DNA of 64,000 nucleotides from Desulfosoma sp. (GTDB taxonomy: Bacteria > Desulfobacterota > Syntrophobacteria > Syntrophobacterales > DSM-9756), in assembly GCA_037481835.1 (NCBI GenBank), contig JBBFKW010000007.1:1-64000 (forward strand), in the 5' to 3' direction. The position numbers are program-made. Positions 27,001 to 45,000 of this stretch are shown here, one piece after another; the stretch's first letter is position 1, and each line of letters starts with the position of its first letter.

Positions 27001-30000
27001 AGCCGTGGGTTCCGGGGCGATAGCGAACCAAACCAAACCCCGAAGGGCTGAAAAGCCCTGAGGCGAAACGCATAATGCTGCAACGTGAAGGACCCTCCAA
27101 TGCCCATTCTCATTGAAGAAACCGCCCCGCGCGACGGCCTTCAAAATGAAGCGCTCCTCTTGAGCGTCCCTCAAAAGATCCGACTTATCGAAGAGCTGGT
27201 CGCCTGCGGATTCCGCCGCATCCAGGTGGGCTCGTTCGTGAATCCCCGAGCTGTGCCCCAAATGGCCGATACGGAAGAAGTCTTGCGGCGGCTCCGTAAG
27301 GAGCCGGGCGTGATCTACCGGGCACTCGTCCTCAACGAAAAGGGATTGGAGCGGGCTCAAGGGTGCGGTGCAGCCCACGTGGGCGTTTTCGTTTCCGCGT
27401 CGGAAACCCATAGCCAGAAAAACAGCGGCTGTGATGTGGAAGAGGGACTCCGCAGAGCCTGCGCCGTGGTACGCAGGGCCAAAGCCGCCGGAATTTCGGT
27501 GCAGGCCGGGGTCATGAACGCCTTCGGCTGTCGCTTCGAAGGTCGTGTTCCCGAAGATCGGGTGCTTTCGCTGGCTGCTTCCCTTGCCGAGGCCGGCGCG
27601 GACGAACTGTGCCTTGCGGATACCTCCGGGTTGGCCAACCCCTTGCAAATGGAAAGGATCGTCGGTGAGGCGCTGCGGACTTTCGCGCTTCCTCTGGGAC
27701 TGCACCTGCACGACACCTTCGGCTTCGGGCTGGCCAACGTATATGCGGCCTGGAAGCTTGGCGTCACACGGTTTGACGGGGCCTGCGGCGGACTCGGCGG
27801 ATGCCCCTTCATTCCGGGAGCTCCAGGGAACATCCCTTCGGAAGATCTCGTGCACCTTTTTCACGCCATGGACGTTCCTACGGGTATCGACCTGGAAAAG
27901 CTGATCGCCGTGCGCCGCTCTCTAGAATCTACTTTCCAGCGTTCCTTACCCGGCCGCTACGGCCGCTCTTTTTAAGGCCTTACCTGCGGCGTAAGGATCT
28001 TCGCCGGCCCGGGTGCCTTCCCCCCCATGGCCTCCTTCGAGCCGGGTGTTTTGCCCTCTCGGCATCGTTTCTTCCAATCGCCCTTGAAAAACGACCTCTA
28101 TGAAAGGCCGCTTCATCCAACATCTCCCGGCACGAAAACCCGTCCGGAGAAGAGAGGCGCCCCTGGGGTGCCTCTGCCGGTGACTATGTGAAAAAATTTT
28201 TCTTGACGAGCGGAGAATCTGGTTTTGTATTTAGCGTTACCGCCGAGCGACGGTCCCCCATTGCCTACCCTCGATGGACGGCCCGCCGCGTTTTTTCCAA
28301 GTACCCATCGATGTGAGCCGCTGACGGCCAGTGCCTGGTATCTCCCGTGAAGCGGGCGCAGTCGCCCTGCGAAGCGGATTTCTCTTCTCCCGCGACGGTT
28401 CCTCATCCTCCCTTTTCCCGTGAAGCGCCAGCGGCCGAAAGGACATGAAGGAGGATCAACGTCATGGGTGAGACTCTTTTCCCTTGGATGCCCCACTTTC
28501 CCCTGTCTTTCCAAGTTCCAGACCGTCGCCTTCCCTTGGGGGGAGCGGCTTGGCCTGTACGCATAAGCGGCGACGGCATCGGGGCCTGGATGGAGACCTC
28601 TCGAGGTCGATATCGGATCGTTTCCGAAGAATGGCTTGCGGCCGGAATGCGCCTGGGATTGCTGGGCGCCCGTTTCGCCCAGGACGGGTTTGATCAAGAA
28701 GCCGTGCCGCCGGAGGCGGCATCTCTATGGCGGGAGCACCTCACGGACGGCCGGTTCTATGCCCTGATCGTCCATCCACCCCAGGAACCCGAAGCCGCTT
28801 TCGCCGCCGCAGTTTTTCTTCAGGATCCCGGTGGCGATTACACCCTCATGGAGACGCCTCTCCAAGGCGCGGATCTTTTTCCTTATCTTCTCGCCTTCGC
28901 ACAGGTTGTGGGCCTGCGCGTCCAGGATCCGGCACGATTCGACGATTACGGGGATTTTATGGTCCTCGGCGGCCACAACATCGTGGAACGGCACAGCACG
29001 GACAAGCGGGTGCGGTATTTATCCCGCAAGGTGCGCGTGGATGATGCCCAATGCACCCAGTGCCTTCACTGCGTGGGTTTGTGCCATGAGATGCGAACCG
29101 CCGTTACCCCTGCGGGCGTGGAGCTCCTCGGACCGGCGGAAGACCACTGCACCCATTGCGGATTGTGCCGCATGCGTTGCCCGTATCTCCTTTCCGTGCC
29201 GCACACGGAAGCCGCAGGGAGGGACGGATCGCGCCGAGCCCTGCTGGAACTAGGCGCCGGCGTCAAGCTTTACAGCAAACATGCCGCCGACTGGGCTGAA
29301 TGGTTGGAATTCCTGGAGGATTCACCCCCCCGGGGCTGGCCTTACACCGTGCATCCCGTCTTTTCCAGGGATGAGGCCGACGGCGGCATGCCCAGCCCTG
29401 GAACCCGACAAAAAATCCTGACGCCTCAAAGGCCGGAAGGGTTTCCCGGGGCGCTACCGGAAAAGGGCTTGGTCGTCACCTTGTTTTCTCACGCGGATGC
29501 GCTTCAGTGCCTCATCCGGCCGCGAGTCGTGGCCGGGCTGTTGTGTTCGACGGAACACGGCCGGGTGGAGCGGGACATCTTTGAAGCGGCTTTGGCGGCG
29601 GGGTTGGAAATCCGAGGGGCCGGGCTTTTCGAAACGTCCATCGTGGACGAAGAGGCTGGAGGCGGTCTTGCCGCTCAATCCGTCCGCGTTCGGGTTCCGG
29701 CAAACGATTTTACACGTTTTCTCAAAAAACTCGGGCTGTGGGACGGTCGCTCCATCGCCCGGTTATGGCGGGAAAACACCGTCGATCTCATCCTTGCCCC
29801 TCGGCAGGACGATGTGCCTGTAAGCGTCCAAAGGGAGGTGCTACGCGAAATCGGCCGGGAAGCCCTCATTCTGGCCCCCCATGTGCCCCAAAAACAGCCT
29901 GTGACCAAAAGCCCGCTTTTGAACGACGTGGTACGGCGCCTCCAAGACATCTTCCATCGGCATCCCGAGCTGTTACAGGCTGAATCGGAGACTGCCCGCA

Positions 30001-42000: not shown

Positions 42001-45000
42001 AGGCCTCTTTCCGGGCGGGCCAAGACCGGGTTGTTTTGGATTTCGCCGCTGCAGGGCGTCCGTCCTGCATGGCGTCCTATCGAGCGGCGGGGGGCTATGA
42101 GTCGGTCTACCGGGTGCTGGGATTTCGCGGGGAGCCCCCGTGGGATCCGGAACGGATCATCGCGGAAGTGCGGGACGCGAAGCTTCGGGGACGGGGCGGG
42201 GCGGGCTTTCCCACGGGACGCAAGTGGGAAGCCATGTTACGGGCCGTGTGTCGGATCGATCCCGAAGACGGCAACCAAGACCCGGTGAAACTCATCGTGG
42301 CCAACGGCGACGAAGGAGACCCGGGGGCCTTCATGGACCGCACGCTCATCGAGGAAAAACCCCATCAGGTTCTGGAAGGAATGATCTTGGCCGCCGTTGC
42401 CGTGGGCGCCCGCTACGGGGTGATCTATGTGCGAAAAGAGTATGAAGACGCCGTGAGAAGCCTGGAGGACGCGCTTTTCGAGGCACGGCGCTGCGGGTTT
42501 CTCGGGCGGGATATTTTTGGAGTGTCCGGATTGCACTTTGACGTGGAAATCCGATTGGGGGCCGGGGCGTTCGTGGCCGGAGAGAAGCGGGCCATCATGC
42601 GGGCCATTGAAGGAAAGCCTGCAGAACCCACCATCAAGGCCCCGTCCAACACCGTGCGCGGGCTTTGGGGAAAGCCCACACTGCTCAACAACGTGGAAAC
42701 CTTTGCCAATGTCCCCGTCATTCTTCACCGAGGGAGCGCCTGGTATGCCCGGCTGGGCACGTCCCGAAGCGGCGGGACCAAAATCTTTTCCGTCGCCGGC
42801 ATTGTCAAGAAAACCGGGCTCGTGGAAGTCCGCTTCGGCAAGACCCTTGGGGATGTCATCGAAATCTGCGGCGGAATCCAGGACGGAAAGAAACTCTCCG
42901 GAGTCCAGATCGGGGGGCCGTCCGGAGCCATCCTGTCCTTGACCGGCGCTCGGGCTTACCTGCTCCAGACGCCTTTGGATTTCGACACGTTCAACGATGC
43001 CGGCGCCATGTTGGGTTCCGGCGGGTTGGTCTTTATCGGAGAAGACGACGACGTCGTCCGGCTGGCTCGCCATTTTACGGATTGGCTTTCGGAAGAATCC
43101 TGCGGTCAATGCCCGTCGTGTTTTCGAGGCACCCGGGCCTTGGGGCGTGTCCTGGACAAGATCCTGGCCGGTCAGGGCACAGCGGGCGATATTCACGAAT
43201 TGTGGGCTTTGAGCGATGTGGTGCGGGCCGGAAGTCAGTGCGGCCTAGGAACAACCGCCGCCAACCCCGTGACCAGCGCCTTGCGGTTTTTCCCCGCGTC
43301 CTTTTTCCACTACCTGCTCGGCAACCCGGAGATGCAACCTCGCGATGTCTTTGAGGCCCTGGAGGCCCTGAGGCTCCTGACACGACAGGAAATCGTTCGT
43401 GTTGCGGGAGTGCGCCGACACGTGGAAGGGGCGGCTTTCACGCTGAAACGGCATCTGGTGCGGTTCCTGGTGGAAGAAATCGAAAAAATCGATCGCTACC
43501 GGCCGTTGCCTTCCCGAATGACCGATCGGTTGCTCCGGTTGCTGGGCCTGCCGCGCTACGAAGTGGGCCAAAGAGAAGTCGTCATGGAATGGCGCGATGT
43601 GGCATAAAGGCAAAAGTGAAGAGGGAAATCCAGCTGTCAGGAAAACGTTGCCCTGGAGGGGGACCATGATGACCAAAGAGAGAACGTACTTCCAAGCCTT
43701 TCGAGAAATGGTGCAGGTGGTGAGCGGCACCTTGGATGTGCAGGTGGTGCTGCAGGCCATGGTGAGCACGATTCCCCAGGTCTTGGGGGCCAAGGCCTGT
43801 GCCGTCCGCCTCCTGGACCCCAAAGGCCGCACTCTGGAATTGGCCGCCAGTCACGGACTCAGTGACGCCTACATCCACAAGGGGCCTGTCGATGCGGACC
43901 AAAGCCTTGCCGAAACGCTTCAAGGAAAGACCGTCGTCATCCACGATGCATCGACGGACCCTCGAGCCCAGTACGGCGAAGCGGCCCGCAAGGAGGGGAT
44001 CGTGGGCATCTGTTCCGTTCCCCTTAAGGTCAAAGGGAGGGTGATCGGGGTCCTGAGAATTTACACCGAGGAGCCCAAGGAGTATGTCCCCGACGAGCTG
44101 GCCTTTGTGGAGGCTTTGGGAGAATTGGGAGGCATTGCCATTGAAAACGCCCGTATGTACGAGCGGCTGAAAAAGGATTACGAAGAGGTCATGAGCGATG
44201 TCTTTCGCTTTGTGGGGTATCGGCGCAGCCTGTGATCCGGACTGCACGGGGGGGAGCGGCTGGGGAAATCCTACGAAAACGGTCGTGTAAGATATCAGGA
44301 AAGTTAAGAAATTTTTAAAGTTTCCCGCCGATTCGCCGATAGTTTTTTTAGATGGCGGCGAACGCCCGCTCAAGGGGAGAGCGTGCGGGCTTGAATCCGG
44401 TCAGAGTGAGGGCGGCGGAAATGGCGGTCGGGGCGGTTGCAGCGGTTGCGGAGAAGGACTACGGCGCTCTGGATTTTCGAAAAGCGAAGAAACAGTCCCT
44501 GGACGGGCCGGTCAAAATCGAAGATCTGGGCTACGTGCCTTTTCCGGTGAAATTTTTGGTTCCGGATTTCATGATCCCGTGCGATCTCTTTGTTCCCGTG
44601 CTGGCCAAAGGGGAAGAGCTTCCCACCTTCGTCAAGGTCTTGGACCGAGGGCAGTTTTTTTCCGAGGAGTGGAGGTTCGCGCTCAAGGAACAGCGTGTGG
44701 ACATGCTCTATGCGGAAGAAGACGCCGCGATGGGCCTCGACGACTATTTCGCCGAAGTCCTCCATGCCTTCACCGAAGACGAGGTGACCCCCACGTGGCA
44801 AAAGGCCCTGGTTTTGTACAATTACGGGGAATTTCTCGCCCGGCGCCTCTTTCAGGATGTGCATGACGGGGATCTCTTCGAAAAAACGATCCATTGGGCA
44901 GACTCCGTCGTTGGGCTCGTCCAGGGGCAGCAGGCGAAGGTTTCCGTGATCTATCGGCTGTTTTCCCGAGATTACGAAACTTTCAACCACAGTGTCCAGG

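Follow-up and report, generated by a model that had tools for sequence, protein, structure and literature searches.

The delta domain of a 2-oxoacid:ferredoxin oxidoreductase (OFOR) usually passes its electrons to soluble ferredoxin. In the pyruvate:NADP+ oxidoreductase of Euglena and Cryptosporidium, the OFOR unit is hard-wired to a pyridine-nucleotide reductase. Neither this enzyme nor phenylglyoxylate dehydrogenase (Pad) uses NuoEF for this purpose: their reductases are a flavoprotein of CPR type or a protein that resembles the small subunit of glutamate synthase. A further arrangement is 'Por-Bfu', which is described as a predicted and uncharacterised assembly of BfuABC with four POR subunits (Schut et al. 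2022, PMC9304861) and is reported there from syntrophic Proteobacteria and Dehalococcoides. For the Bfu enzymes themselves, the account of Li et al. 2025 (PMC11829005) gives B1-FMN-C1 as the minimal flavobicluster, with B2-B5 missing from non-bifurcating homologues and bifurcation ended by deletion of B3/B4.

Here we describe three giant adjoining genes of Desulfosoma sp., a trio that occurs in few sulfate-reducing and syntrophic bacteria. The window that we analysed is a stretch of 64,000 nucleotides, and our literature search found no paper on this giant three-gene module. We propose, as roughly an even bet, that the trio forms one soluble NAD(H)-linked 2-oxoacid oxidoreductase complex of ~563 kDa per protomer.

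Layout of the locus

The three ORFs lie in the same direction (+, as are all features below) at 28464-43607. Gene 1 (28464..34952) encodes 2162 aa (241 kDa) and gene 3 (39942..43607) encodes 1221 aa (135 kDa), both from an ATG, with Shine-Dalgarno-like AAGGAGG and AAGGAG 5' of 28464 and 39942, respectively. The frame of gene 2 is open from a TTG at 34907 (34907..39832, 1641 aa). Codon 21 of this frame is an ATG at 34967 (M21), from which the gene spans 34967..39832 and 1,621 aa, and the start of the database copy P0004 is two codons further downstream (1619 aa); the product is 187 kDa. The spacing is 14 nt between genes 1 and 2 and 109 nt between genes 2 and 3. In alignments of relatives, homologues of all three frames are conserved end to end with scarce gaps, so the trio of frames is more than chance. 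An antisense ORF of 1635 aa at 29973..34880 overlaps gene 1 and is probably a high-GC shadow ORF.

A first-pass annotation had read these three adjacent, co-directional genes as an OFOR-like protein in delta-beta-gamma-alpha order, a helical protein with a single FeS motif and a NuoE-NuoF fusion, and our ORF calls, domain scans and alignments agree with it on each of these points. Domain scans of the neighbourhood found no NuoG/BfuA-like protein, no ferredoxin gene and no membrane subunit in the module, and the maximum 19-residue hydropathy of its proteins is 1.68-1.75, which indicates no strong membrane helices. Ten further POR_N loci lie elsewhere in the same genome.

Gene 1 is preceded by a 488-nt non-coding leader with no Rfam match. 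Alignment with related loci showed a conserved block at 28182..28290, which holds an A/T-rich stretch, TTGACG at 28203-28208, TATTTA 19 nt downstream of it, and an inverted repeat CCATTG-N8-CGATGG at 28258-28277 that has only 3 sites genome-wide. The block is nearly identical in the locus of a Desulfosoma MAG (L001) and recognisable in two Desulfacinum loci (L002 and L003); it was not seen in the aligned loci L016 and L017. We regard it as a putative promoter or operator. A sigma-70 scan did not call the TTGACG/TATTTA pair because the spacer is 19 nt.

A fused OFOR-like protein

Gene 1 is a single chain in which ~1,000 residues, in four blocks, have no match. The delta (ferredoxin) domain at residues 191-241 (29034..29186) carries the ligands of 2 x [4Fe-4S] in two CX2CX2CX3C motifs (C197, C200, C203, C207, C229, C232, C235 and C239), and it aligns with residues 699-773 of ordinary PFOR at an hhalign probability of 95.7%. 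The beta (TPP-binding) domain at approximately residues 533-835 (30060..30968) has the motif GDGG...TDTQVYSNTGGES, which aligns with DTEVYSNTGGQSS of Moorella PFOR (6cin), and four invariant cysteines (C541, C544, C578 and C757). NCBIfam PorB matches residues 533-720 (E 1.8e-11), and the hhalign probability against PFOR 977-1164 is 80%.

The alpha domains I and II at residues 1418-1790 (32715..33833) are the clearest, with POR_N at 1418-1631 (85.4 bits against a cut-off of 27), PFOR_II at 1676-1784 (40.8 bits against 27), and a profile match to PDB 6cin_A (E 2e-20, hhalign probability 99%). They carry the motifs FPITPAGN, TFTASQG and KRALA; the substrate-side motifs PITP, TFTASQG and KRALA align with their Moorella PFOR counterparts. 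All TPP, Fe-S and substrate-side motifs of the chain are invariant in 34/34 relatives, and family-wide mean identity is 75% in the beta core and 71% in the alpha core. We count these invariant motifs and conserved cores in favour of the complex, as they suggest that gene 1 is catalytically competent.

Residues 1112-1289 (31797..32330) are probably the gamma domain (domain III, CoA-side), on a weak match. The match was already given as weak (PF01558, E 0.013) and it stays so, with an hhalign probability of 18% (E 1.3e-3) to PFOR 460-542, which is the right place within ordinary PFOR. PF01558 is precomputed for 35 of the 69 clusters of giant gene 1 relatives. That a CoA domain is only weakly detected counts against the proposed complex.

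A giant helical protein

The protein of gene 2 is all-alpha in confident AF2 models (pLDDT 83.6 and 81.6). A Foldseek search with the models returned nothing at E<=1e-3, and beyond a 60-residue [4Fe-4S] domain we found no sequence relative and no solved fold that is alike. The protein founds a new family.

Its sole domain match is PF04060 at residues 725-756 of P0002 (37079..37174; 40 bits against a cut-off of 23), where the motif C-x2-C-x4-C-x16-C corresponds to C730, C733, C738 and C755. These four cysteines are invariant in both alignments that we made (19/19 and 24/24 sequences). The PDB sequence match of the domain is CFeSP 4djd_C; by structure RnfB 9eri_B comes closest, with 59 residues superposed at an rmsd of 2.0 A (Z 6.5). 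Sequence and models together thus point to an electron-transfer domain of RnfB/CFeSP type, which we count in favour of the complex. As a bridge, one lone cluster is thin for a protein of 187 kDa, and this counts against it.

The NuoE-NuoF fusion

Gene 3 opens with an unmatched helical N-terminus of 350 aa. Its NuoE/BfuC-like domain comes next and is parted by an unmatched insert of 200 aa from the NuoF/BfuB-like core, after which a tail of 95 aa closes the chain. The thioredoxin-like [2Fe-2S] domain is at residues 357-485 (41010..41396; 2Fe-2S_thioredx, 87 bits against 24.8), with C414, C419, C454 and C458 as cluster ligands. The core (41997..43322) has Complex1_51K at 743-925 (136.8 bits against 31.2), SLBB, and NADH_4Fe-4S at 1041-1121 (79.6 bits against 23.5). 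Within it, GRGGAGFPTGRKW is the FMN site and GDEGDPGAF the nucleotide site, and C1054, C1057, C1060 and C1100 are the cysteines of the [4Fe-4S] cluster N3/B1. These three motifs and that of the [2Fe-2S] are invariant in 33/33 sequences, and we count them, with the nuoF_fam match of gene 3, in favour of the complex.

The first-pass annotation had placed the domain hits of the trio far below family cut-offs. This holds for the NCBIfam whole-protein equivalogs, PorA_Arch on gene 1 (79 bits against 550) and nuoF_fam on gene 3 (369 bits against 559, E 1.8e-110), but POR_N, PFOR_II, FeS, Complex1_51K, 2Fe-2S_thioredx and NADH_4Fe-4S all pass the Pfam gathering scores. Only Fer4_21 in the delta region (23.6 against 35 bits), POR gamma (16.1 against 27.4) and SLBB (25.7 against 27) are under the Pfam cut-off.

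The top PDB matches of the NuoE part are NfnC 9n5u_C and HydC 7p5h_C, over their whole length, and those of the core are HydB 7p5h_B (393 bits) and NfnB 9n5u_B (371 bits). Nine Bfu-type B subunits score 360-393 bits, above the NAD-dependent formate dehydrogenases (250-296 bits) and complex I NuoF (264-290 bits). These matches hint at a more complex mechanism, namely a Bfu-like electron-bifurcating or confurcating enzyme that would be a structural variant of Por-Bfu. Oxidation of the 2-oxoacid would then reduce NAD+ and external ferredoxin at the same time, in obligatory coupling, or in reverse NADH and reduced ferredoxin would drive 2-oxoacid synthesis. The site would be [B1-FMN-C1] in gene 3, where the minimal flavobicluster is complete, and the OFOR delta clusters, the gene 2 cluster or both would replace the docking clusters B3/B4. 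Schut et al. 2022 (PMC9304861) also describe a 'Type 4' Bfu without BfuA. However, gene 3 has no invariant cysteine past C1100 in the 33 aligned sequences and no C-terminal 2x[4Fe-4S] domain, and its alignment on HydB spans only HydB residues 137-558 of 626, so the B part of gene 3 lacks both the B3/B4 domain and the thioredoxin-like domain of the HydB N-terminus. The module also has no BfuA, and B2-B5 are missing here as they are from the non-bifurcating homologues of Li et al. 2025 (PMC11829005). Judged by sequence, the nearest kin of the NuoEF module are in the Bfu (HydBC/NfnBC) branch, but it lacks the extra clusters of bifurcating Bfu, and we consider a bifurcating enzyme rather unlikely.

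Distribution and gene order

Full-length gene 2 homologues are found in 6/401 phylum genomes, the count that had been given before; 80 other genomes matched by gene 2 share only the Fe-S motif. We count 18 gene 2 clusters by word-indexed search, against the 22 given before, and 19 at E<1e-30 when all 1.84 billion representatives are scanned with HMMER. Searches with the whole of gene 2 (P0002), residues 1-350 of gene 3 (P0003) and residues 830-1095 of gene 1 (P0001) return the same six genomes, and in each of them these family-specific regions map to adjoining coordinates, so both partners do flank gene 2 in 6/6. The gene order is the same in all six, even at 24-45% protein identity. In a seventh, metagenomic locus (L019) the oxidoreductase gene is upstream of gene 2, and the contig stops ~190 nt past gene 2. 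The families of the outer genes are alike in size: the giant OFOR has 69 clusters, and NuoEF proteins with the family-specific N-terminus of gene 3 have 67; for 23 of the 67, the longest contig has the same size as that of some OFOR cluster.

In one metagenomic protein of 2980 aa (P0104), gene 2-type and NuoEF proteins are fused in frame, with 49% identity to gene 3 over 1191 residues. It is one sequence on one 17.7-kb contig, and misassembly or a frameshift could have produced it.

This sole fused form unites genes 2 and 3 without gene 1, and together with the gaps of 109 and 14 nt and the ordinary habit of OFOR delta domains of feeding soluble ferredoxin it speaks for neighbours that do not form a complex. 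Gene 1 would be a free-standing, oversized ferredoxin-dependent OFOR. Its ferredoxin would be recycled by genes 2 and 3, as an oxidoreductase of their own between ferredoxin (or another acceptor) and NAD+. Against this, co-occurrence and adjacency are strict (6/6), no orphan copy of any part is found among the 401 genomes, and the module has no ferredoxin gene. The long family-specific extensions of all three proteins also keep their length, gaps making up 6% or less of the scored regions (11% of the gene 2 linker 1001-1240), which is hard to square with free enzymes. We therefore think separate enzymes quite improbable.

A fourth gene

A conserved fourth gene, which the earlier account had not included, joins the unit. 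It begins 58 nt 3' of gene 3 (43666..44235, start set from the DNA) and encodes a single-domain GAF protein of 189 aa (GAF_2, E 3e-19). Orthologues with 45-86% identity are directly 3' of gene 3 in 6/6 loci. The family is also common, with members in 156/401 phylum genomes at E<=1e-25, and copies 52-59% identical are present in 5/5 tested genomes without the giant NuoEF N-terminus, so the GAF protein is perhaps not a subunit dedicated to this complex.

The next gene is HD_5/HD-GYP-like in the window and in L003; the ORFs in L001 and L002 are comparable by size and place alone, and the stretch of the G368 locus stops ~380 nt past the GAF gene. These neighbours, and the two thirds of ~5,000 residues that have no catalytic assignment, could fit an assembly that carries no flux and either is structural or senses redox state or metabolites. 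Such an assembly might, for example, read 2-oxoacid/NADH status and signal via the GAF protein, joined in the closest family by an adjacent HD-GYP-type phosphodiesterase. We find this very hard to believe, given that conservation peaks in the catalytic cores (71-75% mean identity), as it should in working enzymes, that the HD-GYP gene does not come after the GAF gene in the G349 locus, and that the GAF family is frequent without the trio.

The proposed complex

The uncharacterised NAD(H)-linked oxidoreductase complex suggested by the first-pass annotation is supported by co-occurrence, gene order, invariant motifs and one fusion of genes 2 and 3, and no test that might have told against it did so. 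We infer the mutual binding of the proteins, the cluster order, the substrate, the direction and the choice between NAD and NADP. The complex would oxidatively decarboxylate a 2-oxoacid with CoA, a pyruvate-like one being the best guess, and deliver two electrons to NAD+. Electrons would run from TPP in the beta/alpha active site to the proximal [4Fe-4S] of beta, the two [4Fe-4S] of delta, the single RnfB-type [4Fe-4S] of gene 2, the [4Fe-4S] N3/B1 of the NuoF-like core, FMN and finally NAD+, with five [4Fe-4S] in all between TPP and FMN. The NuoE-like [2Fe-2S] would sit beside the flavin in complex I fashion. The gene 2 protein would fill the NuoG/BfuA position of other NuoEF enzymes. An architectural role would fall to its other ~1,550 residues and to the ~1,650 in genes 1 and 3 that have no match, and the GAF protein would be a ligand-sensing accessory.

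With pyruvate/acetyl-CoA at ~-500 mV and NAD+ at -320 mV, the values in PMC9304861, direct NAD+ reduction is possible. It would squander the low potential of the 2-oxoacid, which is unexpected for energy-limited anaerobes, and the 10 other POR_N loci already in the genome count against the complex as well.

Comparison with known systems

Gene 2 has the [4Fe-4S] motif and its local fold in common with the RnfB N-terminal domain and the CFeSP large subunit, a likeness that covers only ~60 of 1,620 residues. Gene 1 shares the TPP and substrate-side motifs, the proximal cluster cysteines and the 2x[4Fe-4S] ferredoxin domain with homodimeric PFOR (Desulfovibrio africanus 1b0p, Moorella thermoacetica 6cin). 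Ordinary PFOR is ordered alpha (31-388), gamma (460-542), delta (699-773), beta (977-1164), and the delta-beta-gamma-alpha order of gene 1 is not a circular permutation of it. The unmatched blocks of gene 1 are extra relative to ordinary PFOR, and its similarity is >1000 bits inside the giant family and <=62 bits to ordinary PFORs.

The Euglena/Cryptosporidium enzyme and the NADH-dependent phenylglyoxylate dehydrogenase PadEFGHI are functional analogies, in that a reductase replaces free ferredoxin. The reductase modules are unrelated, and the Pad NCBIfam models score 34.5 and 12.7 bits on the trio against cut-offs of 700. FdsABG (6tg9, 6vw7) and NAD-reducing hydrogenase (5xf9, 8oh5) have modules with FMN, one [4Fe-4S] and one [2Fe-2S], like gene 3, a non-bifurcating set without B2-B5. 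By analogy, gene 3 likely serves a soluble redox enzyme as its NAD(H) port. Those enzymes connect via a multi-cluster NuoG-like subunit, whereas the only candidate connector of the trio is gene 2 with its one cluster.

Por-Bfu, as far as it is described, resembles the trio in that its NAD(H) module of NuoE/NuoF type is tied to a pyruvate/2-oxoacid oxidoreductase that depends on TPP, and the NuoF core of the trio scores highest on Bfu B subunits. Compared with that description, the trio has no BfuA/NuoG-like subunit, its B part is without B3/B4 clusters and the N-terminal thioredoxin-like domain, and its OFOR is one chain of 2162 aa in place of four subunits. Its C and B parts are fused, and a new protein of 1,620 aa stands between OFOR and NuoEF.

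Gene arrangement and leader

The module consists of three adjacent forward-strand genes. Gene 1 (28464..34952, ATG start) encodes a giant 2-oxoacid:ferredoxin oxidoreductase (OFOR) of 2162 aa, gene 2 (34907..39832) is an ORF of 1641 aa when read from a TTG, and gene 3 (39942..43607, ATG start) encodes a NuoEF fusion of 1221 aa. The true start of gene 2 is most likely the ATG at 34967 (1621 aa) or position 34973 (1619 aa, as in its database copy, P0004); the 1,621 aa of the first-pass annotation agrees with the former. The intergenic gaps are 14 nt between genes 1 and 2, 109 nt between genes 2 and 3 and 58 nt between gene 3 and the GAF gene that follows it, and Shine-Dalgarno-like sequences lie ahead of gene 1, gene 3 and the GAF gene. 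An antisense ORF of 1635 aa (29973-34880, minus strand) overlaps gene 1 and is probably a shadow ORF of high-GC (61% GC) DNA.

Gene 1 is preceded by 488 nt of non-coding leader, upstream of which lies an HMG-CoA-lyase-like gene with a terminator-like hairpin at its end (27951-27965). We dropped the lyase gene as an operon member because of this distance and the hairpin between, and because it stands upstream in the window and the Desulfosoma MAG locus (L001) only and is absent from a Desulfacinum locus (L003) and from the relatives' loci L016 and L017. One block of the leader (28182-28290) recurs almost unchanged in the Desulfosoma MAG locus, and both Desulfacinum loci have a recognisable form of it. 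Within the block lie an A/T-rich stretch, the hexamer TTGACG and an inverted repeat, CCATTG-N8-CGATGG. This operator-like repeat occurs at only 3 places genome-wide and so does not define a regulon. Rfam found no family over the whole window, with one chance match of the leader to a miRNA model only, and scans for sigma-70 promoters and terminators gave counts no higher than the shuffled level.

Conservation of the three genes as a unit

We searched the 401 genomes of the phylum sample for co-occurrence with three queries: whole gene 2, residues 1-350 of gene 3 and residues 830-1095 of gene 1. Each query matched the identical six genomes (G000, which is the window's own, G238, G178, G208, G368 and G349), and in all six the parts lie at adjacent coordinates in uniform order, which bears out the earlier claim that the trio is kept together in the few lineages that have it. 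ORF maps with BLASTP gave the same order in a Desulfosoma MAG, a Desulfacinum MAG, Desulfacinum infernum DSM 9756 and two distant genomes. In the more remote of these two, the proteins are still 45% (gene 1), 24-30% (gene 2) and 45% (gene 3) identical to those of the window. A metagenome scan with the middle-protein alignment was swamped by matches to the Fe-S motif and left one true relative among 79 loci; on that contig (L019), gene 2 is directly 3' of gene 1. For 23 of the 67 NuoEF clusters, the longest contig has the identical size to one of a giant OFOR cluster.

The genes might encode neighbouring but separate enzymes, a reading that we hold to be highly unlikely. P0104, a protein of 2980 aa, by its Pfam domains joins a middle protein and NuoEF in frame and is 49% identical to P0003 (the gene 3 product) over 1191 residues; it is one sequence on one 17,676-bp contig, and the contig of a giant OFOR, P0063, is equally long. 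As support for one unit, this fusion is suggestive only.

Mean identity is 65-75% across the catalytic cores of each family and 27-61% in the blocks without a match, where gaps amount to at most 6%, save for 11% in the linker of gene 2. Because these blocks have few gaps at such identities, we take them to be length-conserved protein and not junk. The summed mass of the three proteins is 563 kDa, and none has a convincing membrane helix.

DNA near-identical to window 33000-42900 is present in 8 public runs from 6 studies, and two of the runs are possibly the source sample. The runs are labelled hot springs, sediment or other metagenomes, which is consistent with a thermophilic host; all 8 are DNA runs, and no RNA run was found among the public runs with near-identical sequence.

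The oxidoreductase, gene 1

Pfam and NCBIfam place in gene 1 a ferredoxin-type 2x[4Fe-4S] (delta) domain at residues 191-241, a PorB-like TPP (beta) domain at 533-720, a weakly scoring POR gamma at 1112-1289 (PF01558, E 0.013) and POR_N plus PFOR_II (alpha I and II) at 1418-1784. We also sliced an alignment of 34 giant relatives and compared the slices with five ordinary PFORs by hhalign. The delta slice aligned to ordinary PFOR residues 699-773 (probability 95.7%), the beta slice to 977-1164 (80%), the gamma slice to 460-542 (18%, E 1.3e-3) and the alpha slice to 31-388 (99%). Both approaches return the delta-beta-gamma-alpha order proposed before, with gamma as weakly matched as it had been; that match falls at the correct PFOR position, and PF01558 is precomputed in 35 of 69 relatives. 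Blocks 1-185, 262-530, 830-1095 and 1795-2162 gave no match to the five ordinary PFORs. An ordinary PFOR has the order alpha-gamma-delta-beta, and since no circular permutation relates the two orders, the gene 1 fusion arose separately.

The first-pass annotation described the domain scores as far below family cut-offs. This holds for the NCBIfam equivalogs of named OFORs (Por, Vor, Kor, Ior, Oor, Pad), where all 42 matches fell far short and the best, PorA_Arch, reached 79.2 vs 550 bits, but not for the two alpha domains in Pfam, which both exceed their cut-offs (POR_N 85.4 bits and PFOR_II 40.8 bits, cut-off 27). Equivalogs for the alpha and beta subunits of PadEFGHI, the NADH-dependent phenylglyoxylate dehydrogenase, were matched at 34.5 and 12.7 bits vs cut-offs of 700. 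The giant OFOR family comprises 69 database clusters, and scores fall from >1000 bits within it to <=62 for ordinary PFORs.

The catalytic motifs match up with those of the Moorella PFOR 6cin in an alignment. GDGG (635-638) and TDTQVYSNTGGES (671-683) of the beta domain are invariant in 34/34 sequences, and these TPP motifs align to DTEVYSNTGGQSS of 6cin. The FPITPAGN, TFTASQG and KRALA motifs are invariant in all 34, as are C541, C544, C578 and C757 of the beta domain and the eight delta cysteines. By position, the four beta cysteines are likely to be the ligands of the proximal [4Fe-4S] cluster. Of the features of the OFOR superfamily, gene 1 has the TPP beta motif, alpha I/II, and the cluster cysteines of beta and delta. 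Another reading of the trio, as a sensing assembly, we find very improbable.

In the Desulfovibrio enzyme, the residues lining the pyruvate site would be Thr (in PITP), Arg (in RAL), the Ile five positions further along and Asn (in SNTGG). From these residues, our sole basis here, we would guess at a small, pyruvate-like substrate for gene 1.

A window gene at 19282-21153 (minus strand) resembles the alpha subunit of indolepyruvate:ferredoxin oxidoreductase (641.8 bits, slightly under the cut-off of 650.9), and genome-wide there are 11 loci with POR_N and 3 of the NuoF type.

The middle protein, gene 2

The sole sequence feature of gene 2 is PF04060 at residues 725-756 (40 bits vs a cut-off of 23), whose motif C-x2-C-x4-C-x16-C is invariant in 19/19 and 24/24 aligned relatives, and its sole PDB sequence match is a domain of corrinoid Fe-S protein (4djd_C, E 5e-4). 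AlphaFold2 models of two overlapping pieces, built from 24-row alignments, are all-alpha and confident (pLDDT 83.6, pTM 0.64; pLDDT 81.6, pTM 0.56). A helical protein with a single corrinoid-FeS-type motif is what had been described before, and we see the same.

Foldseek gave no PDB match at E<=1e-3 for either model; the best had TM ~0.1 and were generic solenoids. With VIA-align (48,161 chains), one match to the N model stood out: 9eri_B, the RnfB of the Acetobacterium woodii Rnf complex, whose cluster domain superposes on model residues 690-750 (Z 6.5; 59 residues at rmsd 2.0 A, 24% identity). For the remainder of the N model and for all of the C model (Z at most 5.9), matches stayed within helical-protein noise in this search, where the models exceed the recommended 400 residues, so single-domain matches may have escaped. 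ESM Atlas gave no usable match for gene 2 or the N-terminus of gene 3.

When residues 23-1222 were run by HMMER against all 1.84 billion representatives, 19 proteins matched at E<1e-30 and 29 at E<=1e-3, and the weaker matches were fragments or the Fe-S motif alone. Gene 2 is a small, new protein family. We rejected shared ancestry among the unmatched blocks of the three proteins, as hhalign on all pairs of 13 blocks gave a probability of 15.9% at best.

In a same-genus genome (G238:C1:147882-152678), the match to the middle gene is split in two and has a single in-frame TGA, and in the Desulfosoma MAG (L001, 10004-14467) the middle ORF is only 1487 aa. These differences sit in the variable linker (residues ~1000-1240) and could be real shortening or assembly error.

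The NuoEF fusion, gene 3

Gene 3 had been annotated as a NuoE-NuoF fusion, and Pfam/NCBIfam locate both domains: a NuoE-type [2Fe-2S] domain at residues 357-485 and a NuoF-type FMN/[4Fe-4S] core at 686-1127. Residues 1-350, 487-685 and 1128-1221 have no match outside the family, and 67 relatives match the first 700 residues. Two of the relatives, P0153 and P0158, are only 724 and 725 aa and consist of the N-terminus and the NuoE part; because they carry the NuoE half only, the two halves are separate genes in some genomes.

Nine B subunits of the Bfu (HydABC-type bifurcating) family, HydB and NfnB among them, align with the core at 360-393 bits, compared with 250-296 bits for NAD-dependent formate dehydrogenases and 264-290 bits for complex I NuoF. 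Gene 3 is below the complex I equivalog cut-offs (369 vs 559 and 65.7 vs 142), and neither NuoG nor membrane-arm genes adjoin the module, as they would for a complex I N-module.

The flavobicluster of B1 [4Fe-4S], FMN and C1 [2Fe-2S] has every motif invariant in 33/33 relatives, with BfuB and BfuC as the best PDB matches. The only invariant cysteines in these 33 are four for the [2Fe-2S] cluster and four for N3/B1. A C-terminal B3/B4 domain with 2x[4Fe-4S] is absent: P0003 has no cysteine past C1100, and none there is invariant among the relatives. Nor does gene 3 have the thioredoxin-like domain, with B2/B5 or Zn sites, that BfuB carries at its N-terminus. The B-subunit alignments begin at chain residues 99-137, and that to HydB spans only 137-558 of its 626 residues. 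The sole thioredoxin-like domain of gene 3 matches C subunits at full length, the NuoE part aligning with NfnC and HydC from end to end. From the alignment span and the cysteine pattern, we infer that gene 3 is a BfuC-BfuB(core) fusion without the N-terminal thioredoxin-like domain and B3/B4.

This closeness to Bfu subunits is our ground for considering a bifurcating Bfu variant, in which the delta domain of gene 1 or the gene 2 cluster would replace B3/B4. According to Li et al. (2025, PMC11829005), B2-B5 are absent from non-bifurcating homologues and deletion of B3/B4 abolished bifurcation. We regard such a variant as unlikely.

Neighbouring genes

A single-domain GAF protein gene (189 aa, 43666-44235) directly follows gene 3 in 6/6 loci and is tandem-duplicated in G349, the most distant genome; its copies across loci are 45-86% identical. 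The GAF family is common in the phylum (156/401 genomes at E<=1e-25). Two more copies, 41-45% identical, lie elsewhere in the genome of the window (G000:C2:142991-143533 and G000:C14:53368-53907), and five genomes with ordinary NuoE matches only carry copies that are 52-59% identical. We treat the GAF protein as a conserved accessory rather than an established subunit.

Further 3' are genes for an HD_5/HD-GYP-like phosphodiesterase (44352-45476), citramalate synthase (45523-47136, 784 bits vs a cut-off of 450) and, by domain match, a DUF711 protein (47479-48852, minus strand). The HD-GYP-like and citramalate synthase domains are also found in L003, and ORFs of like size and order in L001-L003. 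None of the three genes follows the module in G349, and the G368 stretch ends too early to tell; the three appear to be conserved in the closest family only. In G349, the genes 3' of the module encode a DUF6866 protein and an Mrp/NUBPL-type iron-transfer P-loop NTPase (L018, 7167-9231), the latter a possible Fe-S cluster carrier. The window also holds, 3' of the module, a B12-binding radical SAM protein with DUF4070 (49840-51456) and a bifunctional NAD(P)H-hydrate repair enzyme (YjeF_N + Carb_kinase, 51998-53551, minus strand).

Proposed electron path

The motifs account for one TPP, one FMN, one [2Fe-2S] and five [4Fe-4S], of which one is predicted in beta, two in delta, one in gene 2 and one at N3/B1. 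The ORFs in or beside the module include no NuoG-like/BfuA protein, ferredoxin or membrane subunit. On the simplest path, electrons would pass from TPP to the beta cluster, the two delta clusters and the gene 2 cluster, and from there to N3, FMN and NAD+. We put the chances at about even that the trio is a 2-oxoacid:NAD+ oxidoreductase complex with such a linear wire, a proposal drawn from predicted domains and motifs. The reaction would be downhill, with pyruvate/acetyl-CoA at ~-500 mV and NAD+ at -320 mV (values as given in PMC9304861).

The module might instead be an independently evolved NuoF-based bifurcating machine, with a new all-alpha protein family of 1,600 residues and a single RnfB-type cluster in the place of NuoG/BfuA and the OFOR ferredoxin domain in that of B3/B4. 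We think this distinctly unlikely. If true, it would be a half-megadalton particle coupling 2-oxoacid/acyl-CoA+CO2, NAD(H) and ferredoxin, which would reach megadalton size should it dimerise like other OFORs, and an anaerobic equivalent of 2-oxoacid dehydrogenase complexes, with an architecture of its own.

Significance and comparison with known systems

In anaerobes, low-potential carbon chemistry and the NAD pool meet chiefly through two ports, OFORs and NuoEF modules; to our knowledge, the direct wiring of one to the other exists only as a prediction (Por-Bfu), with no characterised example. The module family is cleanly delimited at ~70 clusters and open to direct test, with Desulfosoma caldarium, Desulfacinum infernum DSM 9756 and D. 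hydrothermale DSM 13146 as harmless cultured hosts. It could reveal an electron path from OFOR to flavin without NuoG, tell whether NuoF-type bifurcation truly needs B3/B4, and explain ~3,000 conserved, confidently folded residues of no recognisable fold in a redox enzyme. It also bears on models of carbon and electron flow in thermophilic sulfate reducers and syntrophs.

We found no publication on the trio; the supplementary clade tables of the Bfu papers, which lie outside the search, might include these NuoF sequences. Pyruvate:NADP+ oxidoreductase is an OFOR tied to a pyridine nucleotide, and the module would share this tie with it and with phenylglyoxylate dehydrogenase, but its reductase differs. 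The nearest described idea is Por-Bfu, predicted by Schut et al. (2022, PMC9304861) and uncharacterised. Set against the features of that family, the module is without B3/B4, the BfuB N-terminal domain and BfuA, the last being absent in rare 'Type 4' Bfu enzymes too (PMC9304861). What is new here is gene 2 as a protein family, while the OFOR-NuoEF link is kin to the predicted Por-Bfu.
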